In this document: piece by piece, positions 44,186 to 59,847 of the stretch
Numbering within the stretch: the stretch's first letter is position 1
How the letters are laid out: every line of letters starts with the position of its first letter
NCBI GenBank assembly: GCA_963823665.1
Contig: CAWGMQ010000007.1
Location: 224,001-288,000, forward strand
Direction of reading: 5' to 3'
Source of the DNA: an uncultured Planctomycetota bacterium
GTDB lineage: Bacteria > Planctomycetota > Planctomycetia > Isosphaerales > Isosphaeraceae
Length of the DNA: 64,000 bases
Position numbers and translations under genes: made by a program
Notes under the pieces: model-generated
What the model was told of the DNA's origin: nothing
What the model saw: the letters and a program-made list of their open reading frames with translations, nothing else
Databases searched by the model: none

Positions 44186-44279
44186 TGATAGTTCGTCCAG
44201 GGAGTCAGGGACCGATGCCAGAACAAACGCCATTTTACTCCCTGCCGCCGGCGGAGTCGAGCGGCCGTCGCGCTGTCGT

Positions 44280-44588: not shown

Positions 44589-44619
44589 CCGGAAATACCC
44601 TCGCTCGAGCTGTCATTTA

Positions 44620-44664
44620 ACTTTGCAATGCAAAGTATCTTACCGGCGAGAGCGAGTGAGTCAA
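44620..44664 (-). promoter_or_regulatory. Sigma70-like promoter plus perfect operator palindrome
   Basis: TTGACT-16nt-TAAGAT followed by ACTTTGCA-N-TGCAAAGT (44620-44636). Confidence 0.55.
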
Positions 44665-44679
44665 GGTGTTGATTAATCG

Positions 44680-46242: not shown

Positions 46243-46403
46243 CAGCTCGTCTCCACGTTTGGTGATCGGCCCCCTTCACCCTGAAGTGTAATGTCACGGG
46301 CAGGGCCGGGCAGTCCCGCGGTTTTCGGGATGCAGGCTTTTCTTTCCGAGTATGCGATGGACGATCCCTGCGGCGCCGCTTCAAAATCGTACAGAGGACG
46401 GGC

Positions 46404-46454
46404 TGGCAACCAGAATCAGCGGCCGGCGGCTTCTGCTGGATTGCCTTGTTCGAG
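46404..46454 (-). repeat. attC-like site (degenerate, last of the array)
   Basis: Top strand CTCGAAC AAGGC AATCCAGC...GCTGATT CTG GTTGCCA. Confidence 0.55.
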
Positions 46455-46823
46455 GGCTTTCTTCGCTGGCGATCGCATCTTTTTCACCGTGTCCTGGACG
46501 AGCAAATCGTATCGTGCTCGATTCTCGTAGGTCGGCGAGTACTGCCCTTGCAAGTCTTTAAGCGAGCGCAGCACACGATCGCCGTTGCCCGCCTCGAGTT
46601 CGAGGATCGCCGCGTCGATCAGCTCTTTCGTCGCGCGACCAAACCACGCGTTGGAATTAAACCGCTCGAACGATCCGACCAGGGCGGCGACGCCGAAGGA
46701 GAACAGAATAGCCGCGATCCCCAGGCCAATGCGCAGCCTGCGTCGGTCCTGGAACTCCGAGGCGAGCCAGGCAATCGGTGCAGCGACGACCAGTAGTAAG
46801 AGCAATACCCCGAGAGCGCTCAT
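46416..46823 (-). CDS. Cassette ORF: hypothetical membrane protein
   Basis: Two TM helices, P TYENRARYD. Ends inside the attC. Confidence 0.7.
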   Translation of the reverse strand: MSALGVLLLLLVVAAPIAWLASEFQDRRRLRIGLGIAAILFSFGVAALVGSFERFNSNAWFGRATKELIDAAILELEAGNGDRVLRSLKDLQGQYSPTYENRARYDLLVQDTVKKMRSPAKKALEQGNPAEAAGR

Positions 46824-46883
46824 TGCTTCGTCTCTTTCGCCGAAAATCGTCGGCCCGCGCAGCGAATGCGCCTGATGCTTTCG

Positions 46884-47354
46884 TCAGTCCTCATCGCTAT
46901 CGGGCAGCCGCGTCATGAACGTGCTATTGGGATCGTCACTGTAACCCTCAATTGGCCCACACGGCTCAAAGCCAAAAGAGGCGTACAGCCGCCTCGCCGG
47001 TTCGAAATGAGCCTTTGAGCCAGTCTCCAAGCTGAGGCGGCGATACCCGCGACGTGTGGCCTCTGCGATGATGCGTTGCAGGATTGTCGACGCGATGCCC
47101 TTTCTCCGGTGTCGCTTCGACGTGCGCATGGATTTAATTTCGCCGTGCTCTTTGGTCAGCTCCTTGAGGGCGCCGCACCCGGCGAGCTCGTCGCCGATCC
47201 AAGCCGACCAGAACGTGATCTCGGACCTTCGCAGTGCTGCTGGATCAAGCGCGTGGACGCTCTCGGGTGGCGAGATGCTTCGCATTTCTCTCAGGTGCTC
47301 CTCGAGAAGAGCGACGACCGCTCCGTCTTCCAAGGTATCGATGCGAATCTCCAA
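46884..47354 (-). CDS. GNAT acetyltransferase
   Basis: SPPESVHALD, GCGALKEL, GEIKSMRT, RRKGIA, LSLETG, YASFGF. Confidence 0.9.
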   Translation of the reverse strand: MEIRIDTLEDGAVVALLEEHLREMRSISPPESVHALDPAALRRSEITFWSAWIGDELAGCGALKELTKEHGEIKSMRTSKRHRRKGIASTILQRIIAEATRRGYRRLSLETGSKAHFEPARRLYASFGFEPCGPIEGYSDDPNSTFMTRLPDSDED

Positions 47355-47379
47355 CCCTTGACTCCTTCGTCTGGTTACG

Positions 47380-47756
47380 TCACTTCCTCGATCTCGCCAT
47401 CCACGACTCGATAATTTCAAACCAGGTCCGAATCGTCGCCCGCCTCGGGAGCGGATACCGCTGGCATGCCTCCCGCCACGCCTCGGAGTCCGAGCGCCCA
47501 GCTTTTCGCAAATCAGCGGTCAGGTAAGCTCGCTCAGTAGCTGCATCATCGAATGGGTGGCGTGCCAATATCTTTTTATGATCGCGGCGTTGTCGATTGC
47601 GTAATGAAGAAGTCCAGCGCGATCGACTTCAACGTGCGGTCGTGCGCCGTCTTCCGAGTAGCCGAACGTAGGTAACTGGTGATCAGGCGCTCCGATCCGC
47701 GCTGCCAGTTCTCGAACTGTGTTCTCGATCTCAGGCAGTCCGGGCACTTTCGCCAC
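47380..47756 (-). pseudogene. Imm63-like immunity protein, internally deleted and frameshifted
   Basis: LPTFGYSEDGARPHVEVD..LHY, then jumps to ARHPFDD..AWREACQRYPLP in another frame. Confidence 0.6.
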
Positions 47757-47762
47757 GCCTGG

Positions 47763-48200
47763 TTAGCCCCGCCTTCGACGTAAATCTGCCGACTCCACGC
47801 CAACATCCAGGCTACCGCAAATGGCTCGCAACTGCGACTCCGGGATCAGTCCATCGTTGCAGCACCGCACGAGGAAGCGGTAAGTCGCCTCCGTGACCGA
47901 GTGACGGGCCTCACGAAGCGCCGCATGGGCGACGCGCCGCGGCGGGTCCGGCGGCCCGTGGATTTCCGGATCGCTCGGGAAAAACGTCTGCGTCCGATGC
48001 TCTGCCACGTACTCGTCCTGCGCCGCCTTGAGCCGGCGGAATCGCGACTCATAGCCGTCGATGATCTCCAAGGCATGCTGGGCTTGAGCGACCCAGAAGT
48101 CGAGGTTGGCCACGTGACCGGCGAGCTGATGCGTGTTGAGGGTAACGAAGCGCGACAACTGGTCGGCGACGATCTTGGCCACATTCTCCGAGAACGACAT
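47763..48200 (-). CDS. Cassette ORF: hypothetical protein
   Basis: GGAGG RBS, HQLAGHVANLDFW. Stop lies in GGCTAAC (R''-like). Confidence 0.7.
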   Translation of the reverse strand: MSFSENVAKIVADQLSRFVTLNTHQLAGHVANLDFWVAQAQHALEIIDGYESRFRRLKAAQDEYVAEHRTQTFFPSDPEIHGPPDPPRRVAHAALREARHSVTEATYRFLVRCCNDGLIPESQLRAICGSLDVGVESADLRRRRG

Positions 48201-48267
48201 GGTCCGCCCTCCCCGCCGGCTACGGCTAAGATCAACGGCGCGCAGCCAGGCGGAATCTTTCAGCCCG

Positions 48268-48606
48268 TCAAGAAATCGCTTGTTGATCTTGGTCAACTCT
48301 TGGAAGCTCTCCTGCCGCCAGCAGGTGCTGTCGATACGCGGCCACGATCTCTTCGACCGTCCGCGCCGCCCAGTGAGCGATCTCCTCATCAAACCGGCGC
48401 AAACGCGCGTCATTGTCATCGCGCCCGCAGGGGGGGACCCGAGCGCAGTCCGATTTGAGGGCACGAATCCTCGCCGCCCGAACCTCCTCGGCCGCCCGTT
48501 CGACGGCCTCTGGTTTCACGCCAGAGCTCAGGATACGCAGCAGGTGTTGCTCCCGACGTTTAAAGCCCTCGCGCTTCTTGCCGTACCACGGAATGTAGTT
48601 GGACAT
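48268..48606 (-). CDS. Cassette ORF: hypothetical protein
   Basis: MSNYIPWYGKKR..AAEEVRAARIR. Confidence 0.6.
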   Translation of the reverse strand: MSNYIPWYGKKREGFKRREQHLLRILSSGVKPEAVERAAEEVRAARIRALKSDCARVPPCGRDDNDARLRRFDEEIAHWAARTVEEIVAAYRQHLLAAGELPRVDQDQQAIS

Positions 48607-48667
48607 CCAGGTCGAGCCTCGCGCTCCCGCTCTGGTCGCGTTGGCTTTCACGAAGAAATTGCGCGGT

Positions 48668-48728
48668 CTCTCACGCCCCGAGAGCAGTGGCCAGCCGCGG
48701 GCCGACCCGCTGCGCTGCTATGCTAGAC
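48668..48728 (-). repeat. attC-like site (degenerate)
   Basis: GTCTAGC ATAGC AGCGCAGC GG...CC ACTGCTC TCGGGGC GTGAGAG. Confidence 0.45.
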
Positions 48729-48981
48729 ACATCGGCCGCGGCACGGGTTCAGTTCTGGTATAGCTCCGGACGCCCGCGCCCAGCGACCGGATGAACACCA
48801 AGCCGCCGAAGTCCCGATCTCGTGTCAGAAAGAACCTACCCTCAGCCTGCGCGACCCGCAGCAGCCCGGCGTCCTCGGAGCGCGACATGCCCCTCTCAGC
48901 GGCGGTGGCCACATCGAGGCCGAGATTACGCACGTACTGCACCTTGGCGGCGTACACGTATTGGTCCGCGAGGAGCCTCAC
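48718..48981 (-). pseudogene. DUF5615 PIN-like toxin, C-terminally truncated
   Basis: MRLLADQ..GLDV..SEDAGLL..AQAEGRFFLTRDRDFG, then homology is lost. Confidence 0.7.
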
Positions 48982-49208
48982 GCCGTCTCCGCCAAGCGGA
49001 TGTCCTCGAGCGCGATCAGGTCGATCGCATACAGGATGCAGGCCCGGACGTCCTCCGGAGCCAGGTCCGGGTAATAGTCGCGGCGAATCTCCGCGACGGG
49101 ATTCCCTTCTCGCACCAGTTCCAACACGCTCTGGACCGTGATCCGCGTGCCCGCGGCGCAGGGTTTGCCGAAGTGGATCCGAGGGCTGACTTCGATACGT
49201 TCGTGCAT
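48978..49208 (-). CDS. DUF433 antitoxin
   Basis: RIEVSPRIHFGKPCAAGTRITVQSVLEL..YPDLAPEDVRACILYA. GTGA overlap with the PIN gene. Confidence 0.9.
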   Translation of the reverse strand: MHERIEVSPRIHFGKPCAAGTRITVQSVLELVREGNPVAEIRRDYYPDLAPEDVRACILYAIDLIALEDIRLAETA

Positions 49209-49293
49209 GCTTAGACCTCCGGAAACATGGCCTGATCGAAGCACGGCGACCCGCCGGGAAGCAACCGAGGGATAGACTCGCCAACCCGGCAAA

Positions 49294-49352
49294 GCCGGGC
49301 TTCTTGAACATTGATTGGAGGTCCGGCTTCGCGGAATCCAATCCGTCGTGGT
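49294..49352. repeat. 59-bp intergenic repeat, copy 1
   Basis: 54/59 identical to 50954-51012. Confidence 0.8.
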
Positions 49353-49374
49353 CGGACCTCGCTCGGACGCCAAC

Positions 49375-49860
49375 TCAGTCTGGGCTAAATTTTACCCTGG
49401 TTACCCGGCCACGTTCAAAGTAGACGATCCCCCAGTCGGAATCGCCCGGTCCGGCCGACGCTGGGCGAAACACGAGGGTGCCCTGGATGACGAGTTCGCT
49501 CCCCTTCTGGGATGGATCGAGCGGATTGGCGGGCCAACCTGTCCCGCGCTGGTGGTGGGCCATGATCGTCTCGACATCGGCAGGGGTCATCCCGGCCCTG
49601 ACCTTGAAGAGATCGGCGAAGAAAGAGTCGCGGGTTGGCCACGGCACGAGATGGATCACGACCAGAGAAAGACCGATGGCAGCGAGAGTGACGACGGCTT
49701 TCCTCTGCTGGGCGAGCGGCCGCCAGCGTAGCAGGCCGACTGCGAAGAGGAGGAGGACGAGCAGATAAACCCACCCGGGCGGAGGATAGCCCACGAACAG
49801 TTCGTCGAGGACGAGGACAAATGCGGCCAACGAGGTGATAAAGAGGATCAGCGGTCGCAT
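49375..49860 (-). CDS. Cassette ORF: membrane protein
   Basis: ATG 4 nt after R' GTTAGAC. TM helices, VRAGMTPADVETIM..VKFSPD. Confidence 0.75.
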   Translation of the reverse strand: MRPLILFITSLAAFVLVLDELFVGYPPPGWVYLLVLLLFAVGLLRWRPLAQQRKAVVTLAAIGLSLVVIHLVPWPTRDSFFADLFKVRAGMTPADVETIMAHHQRGTGWPANPLDPSQKGSELVIQGTLVFRPASAGPGDSDWGIVYFERGRVTRVKFSPD

Positions 49861-49864
49861 TTCA

Positions 49865-49924
49865 GTCTAACGCCCAAATTCTGCGGCTCGCCGAAGGCGG
49901 GTCCGCTGGATCGCTTTGTTAGCC
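49865..49924 (-). repeat. attC site (canonical, 60 bp)
   Basis: GGCTAAC AAAGC GATCCAGC GGAC CCGCCTTCGGCGA GCC GCAGAAT TTGGGC GTTAGAC. Confidence 0.9.
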
Positions 49925-49984
49925 CAGCCGCAGTCACAAATTATCACAAGGCGCCGCAACGGGCCGGGCCGCTGTGGAGCCAGG

Positions 49985-50209
49985 TCAGGCGGCGCCCCCG
50001 TCAGCATCAGCCTCATCAGGCTCCTGATCGGGCGGATTGCTCAGCATGCTGATGATGTGCCGAGCCAGATGCTCCTTGATCTCGCGGTGTCGCGGGAGCG
50101 GCTGGGAGACCCCGGTCGTCTGGTTCCGGTACCAGTCGTGCCGCCCGCCGTGGCGGACCAAGATGCATCCGAACCCCTCAATCGTGCGGACCAGATCAAC
50201 CCGCTTCAC
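49985..50209 (-). CDS. hicA: HicA-family toxin
   Basis: MKRVDLVRTIEGFGCILVRHGGRHDWYRN..QPLPRHREI. Confidence 0.88.
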   Translation of the reverse strand: MKRVDLVRTIEGFGCILVRHGGRHDWYRNQTTGVSQPLPRHREIKEHLARHIISMLSNPPDQEPDEADADGGAA

Positions 50210-50397
50210 GGGACCACCAACTCGTCAACCTTGCGGATTCCCGGCAACTCGCCGCTCGTCAGGTCCCGGTACAAGTCGATGAGATGATCCTTCAGATCGT
50301 CCAGGGAGTCGCCCTGGGTCCAGTAGTCGGGATAATCGAGCAAGTATCCGAGGAAGGCATCCCCGTCCCGCCAGTGCACAAACTTGATGGTTTGCAT
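50206..50397 (-). CDS. hicB: HicB-family antitoxin
   Basis: FLGYLLDYPDYWTQGDSLDDLKDHL. GTGA overlap with hicA and upstream TACAAT. Confidence 0.85.
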   Translation of the reverse strand: MQTIKFVHWRDGDAFLGYLLDYPDYWTQGDSLDDLKDHLIDLYRDLTSGELPGIRKVDELVVP

Positions 50398-50473
50398 AGA
50401 GAGGCTCCGCGGCCGGCGCATCACGGCAGGATTGTACCTCGGGGCGTCGCCCGCGGGCAACCGGCCCGTGGTC

Positions 50474-50563
50474 GTCGAACAACCAAGCTCAGGGCCCACC
50501 GGTAAGCAGGTCCGAGCGGCAATCCGGCCGGTGCCAACCGGGCCAACCTGATCCGCGTCAGGG
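50474..50563 (-). repeat. attC-like site (degenerate)
   Basis: CCCTGAC (contains the stop codon)...GGCCCTGAGC TTGGTT GTTCGAC. Confidence 0.45.
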
Positions 50564-50803
50564 ATTGCCATTGCCCCCGGTGGGCGCGGACACCGGGCCA
50601 TTTACCTCGACCTGGTTGACGAGGAGCAGGTCGACGATGCTGAACTTCTCGTCATCGTGGTAGACGATGACCGTCCGGCCGGACGGTGAGTGCGATAGGA
50701 ACTCGCTGTGGGGGACATGCAGGGCCCGCCCATCGGCCATGTGGATCGTGAAGGGCCGGAAGGGCCGTGCCTGATCGACATTGCGAAGCTGCTCGATGGT
50801 CAT
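50558..50803 (-). CDS. Small hypothetical protein with its own TGnTACAAT promoter
   Basis: MTIEQLR..ARPFRPFTIHMADGR..VPHSEF. Confidence 0.75.
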   Translation of the reverse strand: MTIEQLRNVDQARPFRPFTIHMADGRALHVPHSEFLSHSPSGRTVIVYHDDEKFSIVDLLLVNQVEVNGPVSAPTGGNGNP

Positions 50804-50953
50804 CGGAGTCCTAGACGGTAGTGCAGATCGCCGCAGCGCGAGCGACGAGGTGATTGTACCACAGGGGGTCTGCCCCATGCGACTCGGCCTGACCGATCGT
50901 TGAGCGATCCTGCCGCCGAGCGTTTCCGAAGCTCAGGGCTCTGCGTGCTCATC

Positions 50954-51012
50954 GCCGGGCTTCTTGAACATCGATTGGAGGTCCGGCTCCGCGGACTCCA
51001 ATCCATCATGGT
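50954..51012. repeat. 59-bp intergenic repeat, copy 2 (hairpin GATTGGAG-GTCC...GGAC-TCCAATC)
   Basis: Matches 49294-49352. Confidence 0.8.
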
Positions 51013-51022
51013 TCGCCGGCGC

Positions 51023-51107
51023 TCATGGCAGTGCCAACGCGGCCTTCAGACAGTCGTCGAGTTTCTGTCCCATGGCCGGCGACGAGGACGACGTCACCCC
51101 GGTTCAT
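51023..51107 (-). pseudogene. PemK/MazF-like toxin remnant (central deletion)
   Basis: MNRGDVVLV joined out of frame to MGQKLDDCLKAALALP*. ATGA overlap with the upstream gene. Confidence 0.7.
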
Positions 51108-51355
51108 GGCTCATCCGGGAGATCGTCGTACTCGTCCATGTCCTCCCAACCCGCCTGCTTGCCTGCTTCCCACGCCAAAGCTTGGAGCTCCTCCCCCGTC
51201 CATGGGCTGTCGTCGTACTCATCGTGCTTGAGCCGCTCGTATTCGTCGAGCCGGAGAAATACGAAAGTCTCCCCGGTCCGGGGGCTCACTAGACGGAGCG
51301 AGGCGGTCTCGCAATCCTCGATCGCCTGCCATTGCTGCTCGTTCAGTTCGATCAT
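51104..51355 (-). CDS. Putative antitoxin (acidic C-terminus)
   Basis: MIELNEQQWQAI..PRTGETFV..YERL..GWEDMDEYDD, coupled to the MazF remnant. Confidence 0.65.
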   Translation of the reverse strand: MIELNEQQWQAIEDCETASLRLVSPRTGETFVFLRLDEYERLKHDEYDDSPWTGEELQALAWEAGKQAGWEDMDEYDDLPDEP

Positions 51356-51401
51356 TGGGGGGCTTCTCCATACCCGCACCGTACCGCCGCCGCGCTCCGC
51401 C

Positions 51402-51461
51402 GTCCATCGCCGAGGCTCAGCGGTCCGCCGCAGGCGGGGCCGCTGGATCGCCACGTTGGCC
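51402..51461 (-). repeat. attC site (R' degenerate: GATGGAC)
   Basis: GGCCAAC GTGGC GATCCAGC GGCCCCGCCTGCGGCGGACC GCTGAGC CTCGGC GATGGAC. Confidence 0.75.
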
Positions 51462-51515
51462 GGGCCGCCATGGCCTTCATCGCGCCCTGGACCGCTGTTG
51501 GGTGCATCACGTTTG

Positions 51516-51657
51516 TTAGCCCCATTTCTCAACGTACTTCGTGATAACATCAGCCAGGCTCGGACGGCAGAGGGCCGCATATTCCTGAGCCATCCTCCCA
51601 AGCACAGACCCACGAACTCCATCCTCTGGTGGGAGCGGTGGTCGGATCGAACCGCAT
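51516..51657 (-). pseudogene. Internally deleted copy of the 56648-57490 gene
   Basis: Matches 56648-56760 and 57461-57490 but lacks the ~700 bp between them. Confidence 0.8.
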
Positions 51658-51685
51658 AGCACACGGCCCTTCCATGTCAGGCGAG

Positions 51686-52033
51686 TTAGCCGTCAGCGTG
51701 GTCGCCGCGATGCCGGGCCTTGGGCCAACGAATCCGGTCCGGCGCGACACTCGACGGGGGCCAGAGGCGACGGGGCCTCAGCTCAAATGTGAAGAAGTAG
51801 TTGTCGAACGAGACGTCCGTCGGGCCGGCGGCCCAGCCCCGAATACGCTTCTCGACCGCGACCCATCGGCGCCGCCGCCTCAGGATGCTCGGCTTCTCGT
51901 AGCGGTCCAATCGCCTCTTATGCCATTTGGCGTGGGAGATCGGGTGGCCGCCCTCCTCGTGGAGCAGCCTGCGCAACCGCTTGAGGCCATCGGCGAGCGA
52001 TTCACCGCCTGCGATCTCAACTCTGACACCCAT
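51686..52033 (-). CDS. Ribosomal protein bS21-like paralog, copy 1
   Basis: MGVRVEIAGGESLADGLKRLRRLL...DRYEKPSILRRRRR plus a C-terminal extension. Stop lies in GGCTAAC. Confidence 0.6.
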   Translation of the reverse strand: MGVRVEIAGGESLADGLKRLRRLLHEEGGHPISHAKWHKRRLDRYEKPSILRRRRRWVAVEKRIRGWAAGPTDVSFDNYFFTFELRPRRLWPPSSVAPDRIRWPKARHRGDHADG

Positions 52034-52206
52034 GTCGCGCGTCTTGACGGCCGACGCGAAGCCGTGGAAACGGATGACTGAACCCCCCGGGGATGAGCAG
52101 CCTGACTCGAAATCGCCCGAAGTCTTGATTGGCTCTCCATCCGTGGACACGCAAGCTTACCACCCGTGTCCGGCAAGGCCAAGCCGGCTTTCTCCAGCGA
52201 TCGCCG

Positions 52207-52306
52207 GCCTGACGGCTGGCGGCTCAGCGGCCCGGGCCACCAAAGTGAGTTCGTGCGCATCGACGAGTGCTGCGGCGGTTCGGGTCCGCTGCGGCGCCGG
52301 TTAGCC
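52207..52306 (-). repeat. attC-like site (100 bp)
   Basis: GGCTAAC CGGC GCCGCAGC GGACCCG...CGGGCC GCTGAGC CGCCAGCC GTCAGGC. Confidence 0.75.
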
Positions 52307-52597
52307 GTCGGCGCGCTTCTGATCCGCGACCCACGTCGCAGCGTCATGATAGATCCGCGCCATCGGACAAGGCAGTCGGTCCTCCGCCCTGAGCCATGTC
52401 AGGTGGACCTGCGCCACTCGCCCGGATCCATCCTCGATCGCGAACAGCACGTCATCGCGGTCAGGGCGGCGGCCGATGGCGCGCAGTGGCAAGCCATAGA
52501 GGCAATGGCCCGGCTACAACTCCCGACGCAGCTCCGCCTCGACCGCCTCGACGTGAGACGGCAGATCGAAGGGTTGCCACGGCCCGATCCATTCCAC
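52301..52597 (-). pseudogene. Cassette ORF with in-frame TAG (52514-52516)
   Basis: MEWIGPW..EAELRREL*PGHCLYG..DDVLF..VAQVHLTW. Stop lies in R''. Confidence 0.7.
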
Positions 52598-52612
52598 AGC
52601 CAGTCCCCCGCC

Positions 52613-52673
52613 ATGTAACGTCCAAGATCAGCGGCCCGTCGGCAGGCGGGTCCGCTGCAACCGAATCTTAGGC
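52613..52673 (-). repeat. attC site
   Basis: GCCTAAG ATTCG GTTGCAGC GGAC CCGCCTGCCGACGG GCC GCTGATC TTGGAC GTTACAT. Confidence 0.85.
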
Positions 52674-52878
52674 TCGGCTCGGCCGGGTCCGGAGGATTTC
52701 ACGAGAAGTCTCTTCGGACGCCGGCGAGTAACATTGTAGATCGCCGTGGAGGTCGTCAGGGCCATCGCTGATCCAGGCACGGCCGATGATGCGAGGGGTC
52801 GGGTCGGGCTGCCGGACCGTTTGTCCGGCGAGAATCGCGACCCTCTTTCAGCCCTCAGTGCGACGCAACTTGATCAGG
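52674..52878 (-). pseudogene. 3' remnants of duplicates of the 54749-55081 and 55164-55679 genes
   Basis: 52674-52760 matches ~54755-54840, and 52832-52879 matches ~55149-55195. Confidence 0.7.
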
Positions 52879-54018
52879 TCAGACTTTCGCTGTCGCGAAC
52901 TTCACCACACCTTTTCCGCCGTCTGCCTCGCCGTCGAAGATCGTGAAATAGCCATTCATCAGCGGCAGGCCCAGGATCGCCAACCCCGGCTGCCCCGGCG
53001 TGATCGCGGGCGCAGCGAAACCAGCCTGCTGCGTATTTGCCTGCCAGTAATTGGACGGTGGCACGTCCAGTTTCACGTCGCCGGCATCGCCCTGCAGCAC
53101 GAACGTGATCGTGGGCCACGTGTCGAGCTGCAGATCCGACATCGAAACGAGCTGGCCCTGGTGGATCGCATCAGAAAGTAGCGTCTTCTGCGCGGCCGGG
53201 AACTTAGAGAGGATAGCCGCGAGCAACGGCGGACTCAAATTGAGGCTGTTTGTCCCGCTGTCGATGATCGAATTCGACGGCATGCCTTGCGGGCCCTGTC
53301 TGCGGGCCGCTATCGGAGAAGCGGAGCCGACGATCACGGCCTTGAGGTTCGTGTTGTACCACTGGTCCGACAGCACCTTCACGGATTGGAACGTGCCCGT
53401 ATACAGATCCGTGCTCTCTTCCCCGCCGCCAACGACCATCCAACCGTTGTTGAGCGGGTCGTTCGCGTCACCGGCGCCCACGTGGACGAACGAGCGGCGC
53501 GTGTAGAAGGAAATCCGGTCCGAAACGACGCCCGCGTCGGCGAGCTGCGTCAAGTACGGAACGAGGTCAGTTCTCGTGCCGGTGCGTACCTGCACAGAGG
53601 TGTAATGCTGCTGCGACGTGTCGTCGGGCATCTGGAACGCGTCGTCGAGCGGTGCGTAGGCCAGGCCGAGGATGCCGTCGGTTTCACCGAACATGTCCGA
53701 TGTCGCGTCGTAGGCGACCGCGACATTACCGCCTTGTAGCGTGGCGGCTGCACTGCCAGTGCCAGCGGTTATGGTCGATTTGATGACCGCGCCGGTCCAA
53801 CTGCTGCCGTCGCCGTAGGAATCCGTCTGCGCGAGCTTGGTGGACTGGTCGCCGCTGGCGAAGTCCGGCGTGTACTTCGTCCCGTCGAGGGCCAGCGCGC
53901 TGCTGCCGGTGTCGAGGAGGACGTTCATCGGCTTCTTGGCCGACCCGACAAGAATTACGCCCGTGTAATCACCCTTGGCGAAAACGTTCGTGATCGGGAC
54001 GCGAATGACGGTTGCCAT
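52879..54018 (-). CDS. Pepsin-like (A1) bilobed aspartic protease
   Basis: VLLDTGSS, flap SYGDGS, DGILGLAY, IIDSGT, ILGLPLMNGYFTIFD. Confidence 0.88.
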   Translation of the reverse strand: MATVIRVPITNVFAKGDYTGVILVGSAKKPMNVLLDTGSSALALDGTKYTPDFASGDQSTKLAQTDSYGDGSSWTGAVIKSTITAGTGSAAATLQGGNVAVAYDATSDMFGETDGILGLAYAPLDDAFQMPDDTSQQHYTSVQVRTGTRTDLVPYLTQLADAGVVSDRISFYTRRSFVHVGAGDANDPLNNGWMVVGGGEESTDLYTGTFQSVKVLSDQWYNTNLKAVIVGSASPIAARRQGPQGMPSNSIIDSGTNSLNLSPPLLAAILSKFPAAQKTLLSDAIHQGQLVSMSDLQLDTWPTITFVLQGDAGDVKLDVPPSNYWQANTQQAGFAAPAITPGQPGLAILGLPLMNGYFTIFDGEADGGKGVVKFATAKV

Positions 54019-54129
54019 GGCGAAATCTCCTTGGGGATTGTTGCGGTCAGCTCGCCTCGGTTGTACGGCGTGACGTATGATCCATGCATACGGTTGTTGA
54101 TCCACGTGAATATCAGGAATGAGGCGAGC

Positions 54130-54368
54130 AACCCGAAGGCGCGCGACCTGGCCCACTCGATTTCCTGATCGATCCATTTGTCGTCATCCTCTCGCGTTAC
54201 GCCATTCCACAACGCCTTTGCGAAGCTGAGGATCGCGAGCTGCGGAATCCCCTCAGCCAATTGCGAGCGTGCCCATGATTCAGGATCGGGAGCCCCCGCT
54301 CAGCGGAAAACTTCCGTCAGCGAACGGAGTTCGTCAGGGTTCACATCTTCGTCGCGTTGAAATGACAT
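54130..54368 (-). pseudogene. Cassette ORF with in-frame TGA (54300-54302), 3' truncated
   Basis: LTEVFR*AGAPDPESWARSQLAEGIPQLA..WIDQEI. Confidence 0.6.
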
Positions 54369-54381
54369 GTTTTGTCTCGTG

Positions 54382-54480
54382 GGCTAACGATTAAGCTCAG
54401 CGCCCCCGTGCGCGAGCGCGAGCTTGGATGATAACGCGACGCGCCGTGGCGGGCCGGCTCCGCTGAATCGCCGGTCAGGC
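54382..54480 (-). repeat. attC-like site (99 bp)
   Basis: GCCTGAC CGGC GATTCAGC G...C GCTGAGC TTAATC GTTAGCC. Confidence 0.75.
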
Positions 54481-54607
54481 GCGTCCTGGCGCTTCGTCCT
54501 GGGCCCCTACTCGGTGGTGCCTTGGGTGGACCCGGCGGCCTCACGGGCGGGGTTGATGGCTGTGGGACTCGTCCCGTGTCGGTCATCTCCCCTCCGATTC
54601 CTGAGCC

Positions 54608-54673
54608 ACCTAACACCCCAGATCAGCGGCCCGCCGTAGGGCGGGTCCGCCGCACAGCATCGCGTTGTTAGCC
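54608..54673 (-). repeat. attC site
   Basis: GGCTAAC AACGC...GCGGC GGAC CCGCCCTACGGCGG GCC GCTGATC TGGGGT GTTAGGT. Confidence 0.85.
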
Positions 54674-54696
54674 ACTGCGCCGTCTACTTCGAGCAT

Positions 54697-54754
54697 GGCT
54701 AACGGCGAGGTTCAGCGGCTCGCGGAGAGGGTCCGCTACAATCGAATCTTAGTC
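54697..54754 (-). repeat. attC site
   Basis: GACTAAG ATTCG ATTGTAGC GGAC CCTCTCCGCGA GCC GCTGAAC CTCGCC GTTAGCC. Confidence 0.85.
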
Positions 54755-55081
54755 TCGGCTCGCCCGGCTCCGGAGGATCTCACGAGAGGTCTCTTCGGAC
54801 GCCGGCACGTAACACTGTAGATCGCCGCGGAGGTCGTCAATGAATAGACGACCACAGTCTCGACACTGGTACATTAATCGGGAAGTCCGGCGGATGGTCT
54901 CCCGAGCCAGATTGCAGGCCGCCGATCGCTCGAGCCGACCGGACACGAGCGCGTCGATGACCTCTTCATCGAGGGAATCGTAGATGGCGAACCAGTCTTG
55001 GTCGGGGATCAGGTGCCCCTTGTGCGGCAAGTCGTCGGTCTGATCTACGATGCTCGCACCGCAAGGGCAACCGATCTTCAC
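54749..55081 (-). CDS. Cassette ORF: CPCG...CRDCG zinc-binding hypothetical protein
   Basis: GGAGG RBS, KIGCPCGASIVDQTDDLPHKG..YQCRDCGRL. Stop lies in R''. Confidence 0.8.
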   Translation of the reverse strand: MKIGCPCGASIVDQTDDLPHKGHLIPDQDWFAIYDSLDEEVIDALVSGRLERSAACNLARETIRRTSRLMYQCRDCGRLFIDDLRGDLQCYVPASEETSREILRSRASRD

Positions 55082-55100
55082 ATAAACCTCCGCACTTGCT

Positions 55101-55169
55101 GCCTGACGCCAGAGATCGGCGGCCCGCCGCATTGCCTCATTCGGCGGGAATCGCGACCCGCCTTCAGTC
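55101..55169 (-). repeat. attC-like site (only the right arm clear)
   Basis: ...GGCGG GCC GCCGATC TCTGGC GTCAGGC. Confidence 0.45.
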
Positions 55170-55679
55170 CTCGGTGCGACGCAACTCGATCAGGTATTCG
55201 ACACTCTTTCCGTCTTGGGCTGGGCGGGCAACGAGGGGTGCGGTTGACGTCGCGGCCGAAAAGTCTTCATATCCTTCGGCGGTGACCAGGAGGGTCGTGT
55301 CTGGTAGGTCGACCCGGCGAGTGTCACGCACCAGGGAGCGGTGACCAGCACCCTGGATCTGGCCGCCGAATCGACGGATGTGCCCCGGGGCGGACGTCTT
55401 TATATCGTAGACGAGGCCGCCCTGTACGAGCTTGACCCTGGCACCAACGACGGGCTGGCCGGTTGCTGCGTCCAGGACTTTGTAAATGACCGGGGTGCCC
55501 GCGTCCGGCCCCGACCAAGGCACCGCGGTCCATCGGTCAATAGCCGTGTAGGCCGTGAGCAAGGCGGCGATGAGGATTGGGAGGGCCATGAGAGTTCGCA
55601 GCCTGAAGTTGAGTCGGCCCAGAGCCCGCCGGCTTGGCGGTGCCCGCTCCAGCGGTGCCAATGGTCGCTCGCTATTCAT
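55164..55679 (-). CDS. Cassette ORF: membrane-anchored protein with a carboxypeptidase-regulatory-like beta domain
   Basis: FRLRTLM, TM helix, VLDAATGQPVVGARV, VTAEGY. Confidence 0.7.
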   Translation of the reverse strand: MNSERPLAPLERAPPSRRALGRLNFRLRTLMALPILIAALLTAYTAIDRWTAVPWSGPDAGTPVIYKVLDAATGQPVVGARVKLVQGGLVYDIKTSAPGHIRRFGGQIQGAGHRSLVRDTRRVDLPDTTLLVTAEGYEDFSAATSTAPLVARPAQDGKSVEYLIELRRTED

Positions 55680-55740
55680 GGTCGCTCCTGGCGGTGGCCG
55701 CGGAGATTGTCACCCGAAGGACCAGCGCGTCCACACGGCT

Positions 55741-55798
55741 GCCCAACGTGACGGTTCAGAGGTCCGCCGCGGGGCGGGTGCGCTTCATCTCGTCAGGT
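55741..55798 (-). repeat. attC-like site fused into the hicB copy
   Basis: ACCTGAC GAG ATGAAGC GCACCCGCCCCGCGGCGGACC TCTGAAC CGTCAC GTTGGGC. Confidence 0.55.
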
Positions 55799-55930
55799 CC
55801 CGATACAGGTCGATGAGATGATCCTTCAGATCGTTCAGGGAGTCGCCCTGGGTCCAGTAGTCGGGGTAATCGAGCAGGTATCCGAGGAAGGCATCCCCGT
55901 TTTGCCAGTGCACGAACTTGATGGTCTGTA
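55785..55930 (-). pseudogene. hicB: Second hicB copy (ATG>ATA, 3' truncated, hicA absent)
   Basis: Near-identical to 50257-50450, including the upstream TACAAT region. Ends DLTR*. Confidence 0.8.
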
Positions 55931-56040
55931 TAGCGAGGCTCCGTAGCCGGCGCATCACGGATGAATTGTAGCCCGGGGCGGCGCCATCCGGCAACCGAGA
56001 GAGCCCATCGCCACCCAATCCGTCGCGTTGCTGCTCTTTC

Positions 56041-56095
56041 CGTCGACGTCAGGCGGCCTGCCGCCAGTCGGGACCGCTGCATCGCCATCTTAGAC
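56041..56095 (-). repeat. attC-like site (right arm degenerate)
   Basis: GTCTAAG ATGGC GATGCAGC GGTCCCG...GGCCGCCTGAC. Stop of the upstream gene lies in R''. Confidence 0.65.
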
Positions 56096-56527
56096 GAGCT
56101 TGTCGCGAACCTTCGCCGATTCCTCCTGCAGGGCATGTCGGGCTCCGAGGATGAAGCCCTCGTCAACCCCGCCCGAATCGCACCTCGGGCACAGCTCGAC
56201 GGTGATCCAGGAGATCTCGTCGCCACCCAGGAAGTTTGGGGCGTGCTTGATCTCAGTGATCGCCCCACTCGGGTCTCGCACTCGCCACGTTCCGGAGGAA
56301 ACCAAATCGTCGAACCTGTCGAATTCCGCCGCGTCGTGATCCTGGTCCGAAGCAGCCCGAGCGGTGAAGTCCTTGCAGAATTCGATGAACTCACGGATCC
56401 TGCGCTCAAGCGGCACGCCGGGCACGGAGAAAGCCGGGCGGAAGGTACCGAACCAGGTCCCCTGGTGCTCGAATACCTCGGTGATATCACCGACAACGAT
56501 AGGGCCGTGATCGAGTTGGAGATCCAT
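56090..56527 (-). CDS. Cassette ORF: hypothetical protein
   Basis: GGAGG RBS after R', HQGTWFGTF..RIREFIEFC. Confidence 0.7.
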   Translation of the reverse strand: MDLQLDHGPIVVGDITEVFEHQGTWFGTFRPAFSVPGVPLERRIREFIEFCKDFTARAASDQDHDAAEFDRFDDLVSSGTWRVRDPSGAITEIKHAPNFLGGDEISWITVELCPRCDSGGVDEGFILGARHALQEESAKVRDKLV

Positions 56528-56549
56528 CAATCCACCTCCGACGCCCGCC

Positions 56550-56610
56550 GTTTAACCACAAAGATCAACGGCCCGCCGCCGGTCGGGTCCGCTGCGTCGC
56601 CATGTTAGCC
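56550..56610 (-). repeat. attC site (canonical)
   Basis: GGCTAAC ATGGC GACGCAGC GGAC CCGACCGGCGGCGG GCC GTTGATC TTTGTG GTTAAAC. Confidence 0.9.
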
Positions 56611-56647
56611 CACGCCACTCCATGATTTCATCGCCTCGTTAAACGAA

Positions 56648-57490
56648 TTAGCCCCATTTCTCAACGTACTTCGCGATTACATCAGCCAGGCTGGGACGGC
56701 CGAGGGCCGCATATTCCTGAGCCATCCTCCCGAGCAAAGACCCACGAACTCCTTCGTCTGTCCAGTGATGCCAGTAGGCTTCACGAAGGTACGCCAAAGC
56801 GGTGCCATGGAAGCCCCGTCTGCTCGCTTGCTCCGCTGCAGTGACGTAGTGTTGGCAAGGCGTACGATAACGATCAGTCGAAGGAATAGCAGTGTCCTCA
56901 AACTGGTTCCTTGGGGCCAAGACTCCGATACCATCCATGGTCTGCAAATGATGCCAGCCATCTGGAATCACCGGCATAATGTCAACTCCGTTGCCGTCCG
57001 GACCGTAGCGGGCCGTGTTCTGGCCTGACTCCGGGCCGACGCCAAGGCGCTCGCTGAGCAACCTAATGCCGCGGACGGACTCCTCGTCCAACTCCGCGTA
57101 ATCCGGAGCACTCGACACGAGGTTGCTGAAGCCGTCGGTTGTATCGGCTCCGAGCAGGAAGACGCCGCGTGCGTCCATCGGACACAGCTGACCCATGGGG
57201 TAGTCCGACTGGTCCAACTCCGGTGCATGAACTGCATAACCGTAGTGCACCCCATCGACTCCCATAGTGCCCACGGGGAAGAACTCCGCCGGAGTCTGGT
57301 GGTACCTGAGCTCGGCGGCGCCGAAGCGAAAGCCGCCGAATGCATCGTCGAAGAAACAAGATATGTTTAGCTTGCTCTTAGATTCGTGCCACGCGATCAG
57401 AACTAACTCAACGAAGGCCGGAGGGACGGCAAAACCGAACGCGTCCGAGAGAGACTGCTTGGTGGGAGCGACTGTCGGATCGAACCGCAT
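56648..57490 (-). CDS. HPF1/DUF2228-like (or SUKH-related) protein
   Basis: AFGFAVP, RYHQTPAEFF..GVDGVHYGY, TMDGIGV, GFHGTAL, YAALGRP.LA. Confidence 0.5.
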   Translation of the reverse strand: MRFDPTVAPTKQSLSDAFGFAVPPAFVELVLIAWHESKSKLNISCFFDDAFGGFRFGAAELRYHQTPAEFFPVGTMGVDGVHYGYAVHAPELDQSDYPMGQLCPMDARGVFLLGADTTDGFSNLVSSAPDYAELDEESVRGIRLLSERLGVGPESGQNTARYGPDGNGVDIMPVIPDGWHHLQTMDGIGVLAPRNQFEDTAIPSTDRYRTPCQHYVTAAEQASRRGFHGTALAYLREAYWHHWTDEGVRGSLLGRMAQEYAALGRPSLADVIAKYVEKWG

Positions 57491-57518
57491 AGCACACGGC
57501 CCTTCCATGTTAGGGGAA

Positions 57519-57866
57519 TTAGCCGTCGGCATGGTCGCCCCGATGCCGGACCTTGGGCGAACGAATCCGGTCCGGCGCGACACTCGACGGGGGCCAGAGC
57601 CGACGGGGCCTCAGCTCAAATGTGAAGAAGTAGTTGTCGAACGAGAGGTCCCGCGGGCCGGCGGCCCAGCCCCGGATACGCTTCTCGACCGCGACCCATC
57701 GGCGCCGCCGCCTCAGGATGCTCGGCTTCTCGTAGCGGTCCGATCGCCTCTTATGCCATTTGGCGTGGGAGATCGGGTGGCCGCCCTCCTCGTGGAGCAG
57801 GATGCGCAACCGTTTGAGGCCGTCGGCGAGCGATTCACCGTCTGCGATCTCGACCCTGACACCCAT
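57519..57866 (-). CDS. Ribosomal protein bS21-like paralog, copy 2
   Basis: Same 115-aa length as copy 1 and highly similar. ESLADGLKRLR..YEKPSILRRRRR. Confidence 0.6.
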   Translation of the reverse strand: MGVRVEIADGESLADGLKRLRILLHEEGGHPISHAKWHKRRSDRYEKPSILRRRRRWVAVEKRIRGWAAGPRDLSFDNYFFTFELRPRRLWPPSSVAPDRIRSPKVRHRGDHADG

Positions 57867-58040
57867 GTCGCGCGTCTTGACGGCCGACGCGAAGCCGTGG
57901 AAACGGATGACTGAACCGCCGGCGGGATGAGCAGCGTGACTCGAAATCCTTCGAGGTCTTGATTGGCTCTCCAGCTCTGGACACAGAAGCTTACCATCCC
58001 TGCCCGGCAAGACCAAGCCGGCTTCCTCATGCGATCGCCG

Positions 58041-58098
58041 GCCCAACAGCTGATGGCTCAGCGGCGCCGCGTGTGTCCGCTGCAGCGGCGGGCTCGGC
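58041..58098 (-). repeat. attC-like site
   Basis: GCCGAGC CCGCC GCTGCAGC GGACAC...GCC GCTGAGC CATCAGCT GTTGGGC. Confidence 0.7.
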
Positions 58099-58116
58099 GA
58101 CTGGCGTGAACCGGAA

Positions 58117-58521
58117 CTACTTGACGACGGCCGTTTCCCAGCCGTCGTATTCGCCCCCCAGAGACCGCGCCATCTCGTCGAAACCTGCTCCAATCGCCTC
58201 GATCGCCGCGAGATCAGGCACCATCGACTTGGTGCCGAGGCATAACCAATTCGGGCCCTGGGCCGCTCGGTCGACTCTCGCACCAAAGCCCTTCGCTCGA
58301 ATCTTATCGGCAATGTTCAGCGCTGCCTCCCGAGTGGGCAGGTATATGAAGAACTCAATGGAATGTGGCTTTGACAGGTCACTTCCAGCCTCTCTGAGTT
58401 GCGCGAGAACGAGTGCGTCGCCGCTTTTCGGCTCTGGGGATGCCCGATAACCCTTGATAGCGTAAATGACGGCGATCAGGATGAGGAAGGCAAGCAAGAA
58501 CGGCCAACGTGACCTCTGCAC
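58117..58521 (-). CDS. RraB-like (ribonuclease E inhibitor domain) protein
   Basis: VLAQLREAGSDLSKPHSIEFFIY..GGEYDGWET. Confidence 0.75.
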   Translation of the reverse strand: MQRSRWPFLLAFLILIAVIYAIKGYRASPEPKSGDALVLAQLREAGSDLSKPHSIEFFIYLPTREAALNIADKIRAKGFGARVDRAAQGPNWLCLGTKSMVPDLAAIEAIGAGFDEMARSLGGEYDGWETAVVK

Positions 58522-58545
58522 GGCTCGACCTCCGGACGCTGCATT

Positions 58546-58935
58546 TCACTTCAATCGCACTAACCCACCTTTTCGACGGATCAGGTTCTTGTAGTCCCAC
58601 TGGACGTCCCGCGCCTCGGCCAACCAGTGCCCAAGCTGCTCCGTGTCAACTTGATCGACAGCAGTGTATCGAGCTTCAGCGGCTTTGAAAGTCCCTTCCT
58701 TTTTCAGTCCCTTCTCCTTGAAAGACTGGCCACTCCAGAAGAGTAAGCGGACACAGTTCTTGAGCTTGCTGTACCCAACGACAGGATTCCCCTCGAGAAA
58801 CCATACAGGATGGGCGTGCCAAATCTTGTTCTCCGCCTCGGGAAGACCGTGATCAATCTGTTCGGCAAGCAGTCTACAAATCGCTCGATCGCTCAGCGCC
58901 TGTGACTCATTGTACGCCGTCGTGTCCGAGTGCAT
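58546..58935 (-). CDS. DUF1801 (YdhG-like) protein
   Basis: LPEAENKIWHAHPVWFLEGNPVVGYSK..LLFWSGQSF. Confidence 0.85.
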   Translation of the reverse strand: MHSDTTAYNESQALSDRAICRLLAEQIDHGLPEAENKIWHAHPVWFLEGNPVVGYSKLKNCVRLLFWSGQSFKEKGLKKEGTFKAAEARYTAVDQVDTEQLGHWLAEARDVQWDYKNLIRRKGGLVRLK

Positions 58936-59378
58936 GCGATCTCCTCATGCTCGAGTAGGGAGCAGGTTCTCCGCGTGGACGCTCGCCATTTGTTGCGGTG
59001 CGCGGGGCAACTGCATGGCGTTGTTCAAGTATGCCGCTTGCGCGGCAAACCAATCAGTCTCCGCTCGCGTGAGGTGAGAACGCGCGATCGACCGAATTCT
59101 CGTCGATTCAGAGCGCCCTAGCAATGCCCGCGAGAAAAGGGCCGAGAAACAGTCCGCGCTTGGGAACAAGGATCCCGCCCTCCCAGCGCGATCGCTCCGC
59201 GGTTCATGGGGGAGATAGAAGCGGACCCAGTGTATTGGCGGAAGCGAGTTGGGAAGCGCACTCTCCCTCGAGAGTCTCTGAAGGGCGTTGCCTAAGAGGC
59301 GAAAGTTTGACTCGAAGCTCGCCATCATTCAAGCGTCTCTCGCCGCATGACCGCGAAAACGATCGGCTCCGGTCTCGC

Positions 59379-59801: not shown

Positions 59802-59847
59802 GAATCTGCTACCCGCTCGAGAAATGAAGCGTCCGTTCCATCGTCTC

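Follow-up and report, generated by a model that had tools for sequence, protein, structure and literature searches.

Why should an array of integron-type cassettes carry, twice, a gene for a ribosomal protein belonging to the small subunit, and how would such a gene be translated? The question is posed by two genes in the window analysed here, i.e. a stretch of 64,000 nucleotides from an uncultured member of the Planctomycetota, which an earlier note had described as cassettes encoding near-identical, basic, bS21-like proteins of 115 residues. Both genes lie where that note had placed them and are read from the minus strand; a plus-strand reading of the two ORFs was rejected, its translations being nonsense and 115-residue ORFs being found only on the minus strand.

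51686..52033, minus strand: bS21 paralogue, copy A, 115 aa (core, residues 1-65; tail, residues 66-115)
57519..57866, minus strand: bS21 paralogue, copy B, 115 aa, 94% identical to copy A

The copies have 330 of 348 nucleotides in common, differ at 7 residues and have a pI of 11.3-11.4. The dN/dS ratio between them, which the earlier note had named as a check, is 0.28 (Fisher p 0.005) rather than about 1 and supports purifying selection on the pair. Core rpsU is retained in the host genome, separate from both cassette copies.

Homology to bS21 is evident at the level of profiles across the family, while the window copies themselves remain below curated cut-offs: with PF01165 (Pfam S21; cut-off 27 bits) copy A scores 20.3 bits (E 4e-4) and copy B 19.6 bits (E 8e-4), and with TIGR00030 the window protein reaches 16.3 bits (cut-off 28.95). 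Some relatives exceed the PF01165 cut-off (48.5 bits for L063, 36.9 for L066, and 31-37 for the Pseudomonas copies), and 48 of 56 family proteins match this model at E<=0.01 and match no other family. A family profile retrieved only bS21/mS21 chains from the PDB (31 sequences, best 1e-10), and the first match in a protein-cluster atlas is an S21 cluster (0.91). The AF2 model computed from 56 alignment rows contains helices at residues 13-27 and 48-65, with pLDDT about 90 there and below 60 in the tail; in a Foldseek search with this model 11 of 14 rows are S21-type chains, all with E>=0.5 and hence not significant. A preceding AF2 model, computed with an alignment of 18 close rows, was set aside (pLDDT 47).

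Like canonical bS21 (PF01165, TIGR00030), the family exhibits the motifs GE..I..AL.RF and YxKPS..RRR in a predicted strand-helix-loop-helix core, and its best-kept positions (E11, 94%; A16, 93%; R19, 92%; R53, 92%) are N-terminal strand-helix residues common to the canonical protein. Unlike canonical bS21, family proteins are longer (median 85 versus 69 aa), mostly contain Trp (117 of 130 versus 3 of 57), and are accessory, devoid of synteny and preceded by a pseudoknot leader lacking a Shine-Dalgarno (SD) sequence. Mean core identity among them is 32%, the N-terminal core being kept and the loops, which are Trp/Arg-rich, and tails being variable; the internal insertion and the tail recognised earlier are seen, when the window proteins are aligned with relatives, as an insertion within a loop and a tail that is conserved. 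A KP[SG]-type motif is absent in 29 of 130 paralogues, so that some may not bind rRNA, and one subfamily has a degenerate KPS helix together with long basic tails. In a quick unrooted tree, the pseudoknot-led proteins fall on a separate side from canonical bS21 (SH-aLRT 93). At the level of sequence, these comparisons establish a separate, fast-evolving bS21 group held beside core rpsU, whose members are named plain '30S ribosomal protein S21' in databases.

The description of the genes as cassette cargo holds for their upstream side, for the array and for relatives with attC sites, but their own attC sites have collapsed and no integrase was found in the genome. The relevant features are:

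46401..58098, minus strand: attC cassette array, CALIN-like, 15 attC matches, no integrase detected
52207..52306, minus strand: attC upstream of copy A, with R'', L'', L' and R' boxes readable in the sequence
52065..52206, minus strand: 5' region of cassette A, 120 of 142 nt common with copy B
51676..51682, minus strand: relic R'' core of a collapsed attC, copy A, where relatives' ORFs end
51516..51675, minus strand: fused downstream gene of copy A, an internally deleted remnant by sequence comparison with unit B
51402..51461, minus strand: next attC, closing unit A (covariance model)
58041..58098, minus strand: degenerate attC upstream of copy B (covariance model and sequence)
57898..58040, minus strand: 5' region of cassette B, homologous to that of cassette A
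57509..57515, minus strand: relic R'' core of a collapsed attC, copy B (sequence)
56648..57508, minus strand: fused downstream ORF of copy B, intact, about 280-286 aa, no family match
56550..56610, minus strand: next attC, closing unit B (covariance model)

Nine of the 15 minus-strand attC matches are training sites of the attC covariance model. Each gene lies downstream of an attC whose R' crossover is the start of the cassette, as in integron cassettes; sequence identity between the copies starts at the L'/R' end of this site, and ~140 nt separate it from the pseudoknot leader in each copy. A weak extended -10-like site (52154-52159 in A, 57988-57993 in B), of which TGnTAAGCT is kept in both copies, is assigned with low confidence, and a promoter scan did not call that of cassette A. 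At the other end, the terminal GGCTAA pointed out earlier does close both genes but is not an attC core; R''-like cores (GCCTGAC / CCCTAAC) lie 4-10 nt later. In seven of the closest relatives the ORF is 3 residues longer, ending in (D/S/N)-G/x-E-L-x or similar, and the Glu codon of this longer C-terminus is a stop codon in both window copies. A complete attC after the own gene is absent in both, just the R''-like core being left, and the collapsed site joins each bS21 gene to the next ORF; hence, as mobile units both cassettes are themselves decayed. About 700 bp are missing from the ORF behind copy A, of which the 5' part matches 57460-57508 and the 3' part 56648-56760, and the ORF behind copy B has no Pfam, NCBIfam or PADLOC match. 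This loss and the truncated duplicates at 55789-55997 and 52648-52758 agree with the earlier statement that neighbouring cassettes decayed, but six neighbours in the array (aspartyl protease, RraB-like, DUF1801, HicA, GNAT and DUF433 genes) look intact. No IntI above the TIGR02249 cut-off was found in the host genome (92% complete), the top match being a different tyrosine recombinase.

Mobility is more readily seen in the relatives. A complete attC follows the gene in L012, L109 and L362; an attC arm stands at the expected position in 11 of 80 untrained loci (0/77 and 0/75 control windows) and in 11 of 44 loci of a second set (none in controls), and the covariance model is positive for 7 of 67 related but 0 of 30 canonical-type loci. 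This model and the arm matrices replaced two home-made attC finders, which were too insensitive. L400 belongs to an array with IntI ~6 kb upstream, one relative resides within a complete Pseudomonas integron, and four of five Pseudomonas genomes tested contain IntI. These observations show the bS21 paralogues to be mobile as integron cassette cargo; the family is spread over several phyla and is not a one-off. A single-protein scan of GTDB contigs yielded no match. The sole trace of expression, a contig of 153 nt that falls within the gene (97% alike) and comes from one peat metatranscriptome (0.09 share), is not counted as support because DNA carry-over is possible there.

How these genes might be translated is suggested by what precedes them:

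52039..52064, minus strand: H-type pseudoknot leader of copy A, 26 nt, identical in both copies, with covariation
57872..57897, minus strand: H-type pseudoknot leader of copy B, 26 nt, identical to that of copy A

The pseudoknot comprises stem S1 (4 bp), L1 (3 nt), stem S2 (5 bp), L2 (1 nt) and L3 (4 nt), and ends 5 nt before the ATG; an SD is absent, and the leader sequence matches the host genome only at the two copies. The earlier note mentioned neither this leader nor the spread of the family over several phyla. A DNA-only motif scan of GTDB yielded 70 exact loci, 63 of them followed by a bS21-like ORF; six of the remaining seven are from outside Planctomycetota and have no bS21 there. The structure is not a trait of canonical rpsU leaders. 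Conversely, relatives picked by protein alone keep the pseudoknot in Planctomycetota, Pseudomonas, Chloroflexota and Acidobacteriota. For 25 protein-selected leaders plus the window, pairing is 97.9% versus 92.2% when shuffled, with 11 double changes that were equalled in 0 of 500 shuffles, and 35 of 44 further protein-selected loci are fully paired as compared with 4 of the 61 leaders of canonical rpsU and a single one of 220 shuffles. Both stems covary, with compensatory double changes at 7 of 9 pairs (33 distinct stem sets, 5 broken or mis-registered loci being excluded and the register of 39 loci being set by a pairing-maximising script). The stem pairs contain 15 G-U versus 3 C-A cells, and this excess on the sense strand points to sense-strand RNA; a DNA hairpin was rejected on this ground. 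Likewise, a frameshift stimulator was rejected, given that the U-rich stretch lies just 4-7 nt upstream and that no upstream ORF appeared to be conserved. In five relatives (L348, L353, L354, L356, L359), the stem is broken although the ORF is intact. Minimum-energy folding is blind to pseudoknots; it tends to find stem 2, and its z-score is not significant. A literature search outside the supplementary motif tables of large RNA-motif surveys found no paper describing the leader.

An SD match of at least 4 nt occurs in 0 of 89 pseudoknot-led leaders, as opposed to 57 of the 61 leaders of canonical rpsU. In the second set, 1 of 44 leaders has such a match, and this single strong-SD member (L018/L394) has lost the pseudoknot register. 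The spacer between pseudoknot and start codon measures 5-7 nt in 86 of 89 leaders. Direct pairing of leader and anti-SD was rejected, and examined host 16S tails keep the canonical anti-SD (the tail of the window's own host genome was searched for and not found). Since about half of all genes in Planctomycetia are SD-less (48% according to the accessible text of PMC10783764), SD absence alone is weak evidence in this class. The leader alignments nevertheless establish, for the sequences compared, a covarying pseudoknot that takes the place of the SD, ending 5-7 nt before the start codon. bS1 could recruit such an mRNA; for the E. coli IGR IRES, the available part of PMC9458429 reports that apparently structure-driven initiation turned out to reflect S1 plus an SD-like element.

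What, then, does the pseudoknot do? We consider the chances about even that the accessory bS21 enters the 30S platform, that the pseudoknot replaces the SD/anti-SD helix, and that synthesis would depend on the bS21 site. Quite probably, the paralogue would dock in this site via its N-terminal strand-helix and the KPS-RRR helix, the variable Trp/Arg-rich loop and tail altering the handling of anti-SD and mRNA leader. According to the accessible sections of PMC13000457, the two bS21 helices form a V through which the SD/anti-SD helix usually passes, and in the autoregulation of Flavobacterium rpsU bS21 is excluded by a longer helix. As for rpsO, its pseudoknot docks on the platform (PMC3858243, as far as its available text goes). 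It seems somewhat likely that the 9-bp pseudoknot would occupy the platform place of the SD/anti-SD helix in the bS21-lined cleft, positioning the start codon without anti-SD pairing. From such a location, initiation might be read by bS21 occupancy and depend on whether, or which, bS21 is bound, thereby providing feedback, to which we assign slightly less than an even chance; in the simplest version, ribosomes lacking bS21 or an available anti-SD would translate the mRNA, and the product would fill the site. The cassette element would then be a spare or alternative component of the mRNA exit channel, both portable and self-regulating.

It appears unlikely that the pseudoknot is instead a classical r-leader, bound off the ribosome by free paralogue or host bS21, or trapped on the platform, so as to repress as uS15 does on rpsO. 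The rpsO precedent, the position upstream of an r-protein gene at 63 of 70 exact motif loci and the strong conservation of leader sequence in addition to structure are as expected for such an operator, which would, however, lack an SD to unmask upon unfolding. One strand of stem S1 partly resembles the base of 16S helix 45, yet the similar stretch is short, does not match perfectly and has disappeared from the variants in Pseudomonas and Chloroflexota. Moreover, conservation is higher in the leader than in the protein with its 32% mean core identity, as would be expected if the reader were itself conserved, like the host ribosome.

Doubtful, too, is a defence or stress effector that poisons or reprogrammes initiation in phage-infected or stressed cells, hiding of the anti-SD being one conceivable way, and is held off by the pseudoknot until triggered. 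The cassette lies among toxin-antitoxin genes, loop and tail diverge rapidly, phage bS21 exist (PMC9723584, accessible part), a comparison by features places clusters of long viral S21 next to the family (0.85, a lead only), and translation of the timP toxin requires a pseudoknot (PMC13000454, accessible part). However, PADLOC gave no match for 5 proteins, no antitoxin partner is seen, the flanking genes are unrelated (149 components among 165 flanks), and many copies stand alone behind promoter-like sites. Nor was a phage-borne member found: two protein scans of viral contigs and a query of plasmid and phage records with the Pseudomonas member gave no match, and of 4 matches in a DNA motif scan of viral contigs the single real one sits behind an attC among cassette-like genes.

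In size and H-type geometry, the leader is reminiscent of preQ1-I and SAM-II riboswitches, and L3 ends in an invariant AA in the Planctomycetota set. We regard a ligand-sensing riboswitch or mRNA-stability element independent of bS21 occupancy as quite improbable, though, since loop bases vary freely across phyla, an SD-less leader has nothing to sequester, and the fixed 5-7 nt spacer indicates ribosome geometry; Rfam covariance models applied to window positions 43000-60000 and 8 related loci gave just sub-threshold, unrelated matches away from the leader. Least credible is a paralogue that has ceased to act on the ribosome and would bind a different RNA, the pseudoknot serving as its target, for despite the subfamily with degenerate KPS helix and long basic tails, and bS21 reported within the OLE RNP (in the part of that report accessible), the best-kept positions (E11, A16, R19, R53) are those of canonical bS21.

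The proposed reading by bS21 occupancy on the platform has its closest parallel in Flavobacterium johnsoniae rpsU (PMC13000457, PMC7797042, accessible parts), where a special signal likewise occupies the SD position of a bS21 mRNA; there, however, a core gene has a long SD that pairs with 16S rRNA, whereas here an intramolecular, SD-less pseudoknot precedes a mobile paralogue and sensing is inferred. The E. coli rpsO operator (PMC3858243, available text) is also an H-type pseudoknot in an r-protein leader and docks on the 30S platform, but it retains an SD and overlaps the coding sequence, while that of the cassette is 26 nt long, wholly upstream, SD-less and mobile. Francisella bS21 paralogues and phage bS21 create, or possibly create, ribosome heterogeneity; the accessible portions of PMC13374519 and PMC9723584 describe neither a conserved leader structure (the Francisella rpsU2 stem-loops being dispensable) nor integron cassettes. 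Integron accessory peptide deformylases (PMC12690207) are paralogues of a core translation gene in cassettes, but enzymes giving inhibitor resistance, and the text available mentions neither a ribosomal protein nor an RNA leader.

Clearly more than a hundred natural variants of bS21 are carried on mobile cassettes in this family, nearly all with the same small RNA structure at the SD position. To our knowledge, few cases of specialised ribosomes are established in bacteria, most of them involving bS21. Many 'S21' database entries are accessory paralogues, which is relevant to marker-gene trees and bin quality. Copies, including one in a complete integron, occur in culturable Pseudomonas, opening direct tests of whether an RNA structure can replace SD/anti-SD pairing and whether a bS21 swap changes which mRNAs are translated. 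Pseudoknot and bS21 cassette together hint at an undescribed bacterial way to start or control translation. It is tempting, if decidedly tentative, to speculate that the pseudoknot may be a mimic of the SD/anti-SD helix, a 26-nt, pairing-independent signal read by the bS21 cleft, which together with a diversifying bS21 might form a mobile module by which the composition of ribosomes is sensed and rewritten. If so, specialised ribosomes would be transferable between phyla by integrons.

The window holds two accessory bS21 genes on the minus strand, copies A and B, within an array of attC-like sites.

46401-58098, minus strand: array of 15 attC-like sites matched by a covariance model, nine of them training sites of that model
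48718-49373: DUF433/DUF5615 pair, the relic of a second lying at 50954-51024
49985-50397, minus strand: gene for a HicA toxin, preceded by a small partner gene
51686-52033, minus strand: bS21 paralogue, copy A
52879-54018, minus strand: eukaryotic-type (pepsin-like) aspartyl protease of 379 aa (Pfam Asp, E 5.5e-21), inside the array
55789-55997, minus strand: truncated second copy of the HicA partner with its 5' region, 5.5 kb off
56648-57508, minus strand: ORF of ~280 aa fused behind the copy B gene after attC collapse, with no family in Pfam, NCBIfam or PADLOC
57519-57866, minus strand: bS21 paralogue, copy B
58117-58521, minus strand: RraB-like domain (E 5.9e-21) after an N-terminal hydrophobic segment, immediately upstream of the copy B cassette
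1600-4670: long gene of 147-nt-period repeats, FG-GAP/VCBS-like by eye
38555-42232: kinase gene with TPR-like repeats

As the earlier note had observed, both copies encode nearly identical basic proteins of 115 aa and follow an attC; their pI exceeds 11, and 330 of 348 nt agree. The terminal GGCTAA that it singled out, however, is a stop that leaves the protein three residues shorter than its closest relatives. The copies have diverged under selection, with a dN/dS of 0.28 (9.5 synonymous and 8.5 non-synonymous differences; p 0.005), not near 1, and among 57 close pairs of the family, which are not independent, 54 gave a value, 53 of these lying at 0.05-0.32 and one at 0.78. The sequence common to both copies begins where the upstream attC ends. 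Downstream of each, an R''-like core is present while the remainder of the attC is lost, so that the bS21 gene now runs into a fused second ORF, intact at copy B and with ~700 bp deleted at copy A. Since a second gene was fused on and the bS21 gene's own attC was lost, the duplicated unit comprises leader, bS21 gene and second gene, and has ceased to be a clean single cassette. No integron integrase above the family cut-off is found in the host genome (92% complete), the best integrase-like match of which is a 282-aa tyrosine recombinase, not IntI, followed by a frameshifted transposase-like ORF (L119, 42-2049; G000 C4).

That the proteins are divergent bS21 paralogues is borne out at the family level: 48 of 56 members match Pfam S21, and in the PDB the family profile finds nothing but S21 chains (31 sequences). 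For the window proteins themselves S21 is the sole Pfam match, but at E 4e-4 it falls below the cut-off. AlphaFold models both bS21 helices confidently (the tail not), and S21 chains rank first in Foldseek, but these matches are not significant. Best kept are the N-terminal strand-helix residues and an Arg of the second helix, and the loop has gained a W-H-K-type insertion. The tail is retained in 16 metagenomic relatives at 67-88% identity, and tails are diverse among the 69 matches that a profile recovered from 1.84 billion representatives. The host genome also encodes a separate canonical rpsU with a Shine-Dalgarno (SD) sequence, which clusters with Isosphaeraceae sequences, setting the paralogue apart from the core gene. 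In a quick tree (unrooted, 72 columns, long branches, 44 later loci left out), 57 canonical sequences fall on one side and 83 pseudoknot-led ones plus locus L018 on the other (SH-aLRT 93). At least two bS21 matches occur in 47 of 50 motif-bearing genomes, and two in all five genomes tested outside Planctomycetota; some family genomes have 5-8, and many Gemmataceae-type genomes (L159-L196) carry at least two canonical-type, SD-led genes beside pseudoknot-led ones.

The proposal that bS21 travels as cassette cargo was likewise upheld: (i) clean attC-gene-attC cassettes occur at L012, L109 and Pseudomonas loci, (ii) the cassette of L400 belongs to an array and has an intact intI ~6 kb away, (iii) an attC arm stands at the expected place in 11 of 80 untrained planctomycete-type loci (controls 0/77 and 0/75) and in 11 of 44 of a second set, and (iv) an R'-like core is enriched upstream (13/80 versus 1/80), with its end exactly 19 nt away from the pseudoknot in 10 of 20. 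In most members no attC can be recognised, and the 165 flanks compared are unrelated, falling into 149 components, a picture that would fit single insertions followed by attC loss. In four copies without attC (L079, L090, L101, L115), near-consensus sigma-70 -35/-10 pairs are visible by eye ~25-45 nt upstream of the pseudoknot, which suggests that these copies were captured behind promoters of the host.

A short sequence directly before the ATG is shared by five distant metagenomic loci (41-47% identity) and reads as an H-type pseudoknot (S1 4 bp, L1 3 nt, S2 5 bp, L2 1 nt, L3 4-6 nt). It spans 26 nt in copies A and B, where it is identical, its exact pattern being absent elsewhere in the host genome. 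A DNA-only GTDB scan yielded 70 loci, 63 of them followed by a bS21-like frame (62 at ≥15 bits with a profile partly built from them, one cut by a contig end); three of the 63 carry a frameshift or a stop, and in one the start is altered. Six of the other seven are non-planctomycete loci without bS21, and one has lost its ORF. At L052 (1501-1530, Chloroflexia) the exact motif precedes an ATG by 5 nt with no bS21 similarity downstream, and may be chance or a leader before another gene. Of the 55 loci that a subfamily search gave, spread over Pseudomonas (alcaligenes/oleovorans group), Bowmanella, Alkanindiges, Thiotrichales, Chloroflexota, Acidobacteriota and one Bacteroidales bin, 44 were new.

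Because the DNA scan fixed the sequence, covariation was measured on loci found by protein alone. In 25 such leaders plus the window, one row being misaligned and relatedness inflating such tests, 97.9% of cells are paired (92.2% in shuffles; 16-50% in slid controls), with 11 double changes and both stems varying; none of 500 shuffles scored as high. When one S2 base was forced to change in a relaxed scan, the complementary partner appeared in 5/5 bS21-linked versus 14/42 unlinked matches with that same base, among the 119 listed. The pseudoknot is fully paired in 35 of 44 new loci, but among canonical leaders in just 4 of 61 and among shuffles in 1 of 220; counting against it, the other nine fail, some with the ORF intact. 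Across 33 distinct stem sets (five broken or mis-registered loci omitted), double changes affect 7 of 9 pairs, and on the sense strand G-U outnumbers C-A by 15 cells to 3. Gammaproteobacterial copies have an S2 of 4 bp plus a C-A mismatch.

In 86 of 89 leaders, 5-7 nt separate the pseudoknot from the start codon. Planctomycete leaders have a U-rich stretch at -10 to -5, which could be a site for bS1. An SD match of at least 4 nt is found in 0/89 pseudoknot leaders versus 57/61 canonical genes, to be read against an SD use in Planctomycetia of 48% (excerpts of PMC10783764). The sole strong-SD member, L018 (= L394; about 1455-1500), has no pseudoknot in register; a possible degenerate one lies further upstream, and the locus may have switched naturally from the pseudoknot to an SD.

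What the data show is homology, selection, a cassette origin, a conserved structure, a missing SD and a constant spacing; the mechanism built on these is inferred. Solved complexes have the SD/anti-SD helix passing between the two bS21 helices (excerpts of PMC13000457); in Flavobacterium a longer such helix keeps bS21 out, and ribosomes lacking bS21 hence translate rpsU (excerpts of PMC13000457 and PMC7797042). The 30S platform is also where the rpsO pseudoknot docks (excerpt of PMC3858243), and the 9-bp stack of our leader, ending 5-7 nt before the AUG, would sit in the SD-helix chamber. Together, these points make it the most likely reading, to which we give about an even chance, that the pseudoknot substitutes for the SD helix and that the bS21 site reads it, whereby paralogue synthesis would be coupled to bS21 occupancy. 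The IGR IRES precedent, reduced to S1 plus an SD-like element (excerpt of PMC9458429), and the U-rich stretch of the planctomycete leaders counsel caution about structure-driven initiation. Repression by the free protein is a distinctly less probable role for the leader, and a defence or stress effector is a still more doubtful one for the paralogue. We consider a riboswitch or stability element improbable, and a non-ribosomal role very improbable indeed.

Rfam 15 has no family matching the leader, and databases label the relatives plainly S21. The full-text literature, as far as it is indexed, yielded no paper on bS21 cassettes or such a leader, a motif-table entry in supplements being still possible. 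The terms S21, Planctomyc and pseudoknot are all absent from the main text of an r-leader survey (PMC7247131), and no such cassette or leader appears in the bS21 section of a 2024 review (PMC10931766) or in excerpts of a Francisella paper (PMC13374519). Closest in kind come the control of rpsU in Flavobacterium, the operator of rpsO and, from partial sources, Francisella and phage bS21 (PMC9723584), the timP pseudoknot and integron-borne deformylases. Hence, the initial observation is confirmed in part, and its interpretation, supported in part, is much extended: to the bS21 paralogue as cassette cargo we add a covarying, SD-less pseudoknot leader and a family spread across several phyla. We conclude that these genes belong to an accessory bS21 family carried by integron cassettes, the leader of which has a hitherto undescribed, covarying pseudoknot that would take the place of the SD sequence.
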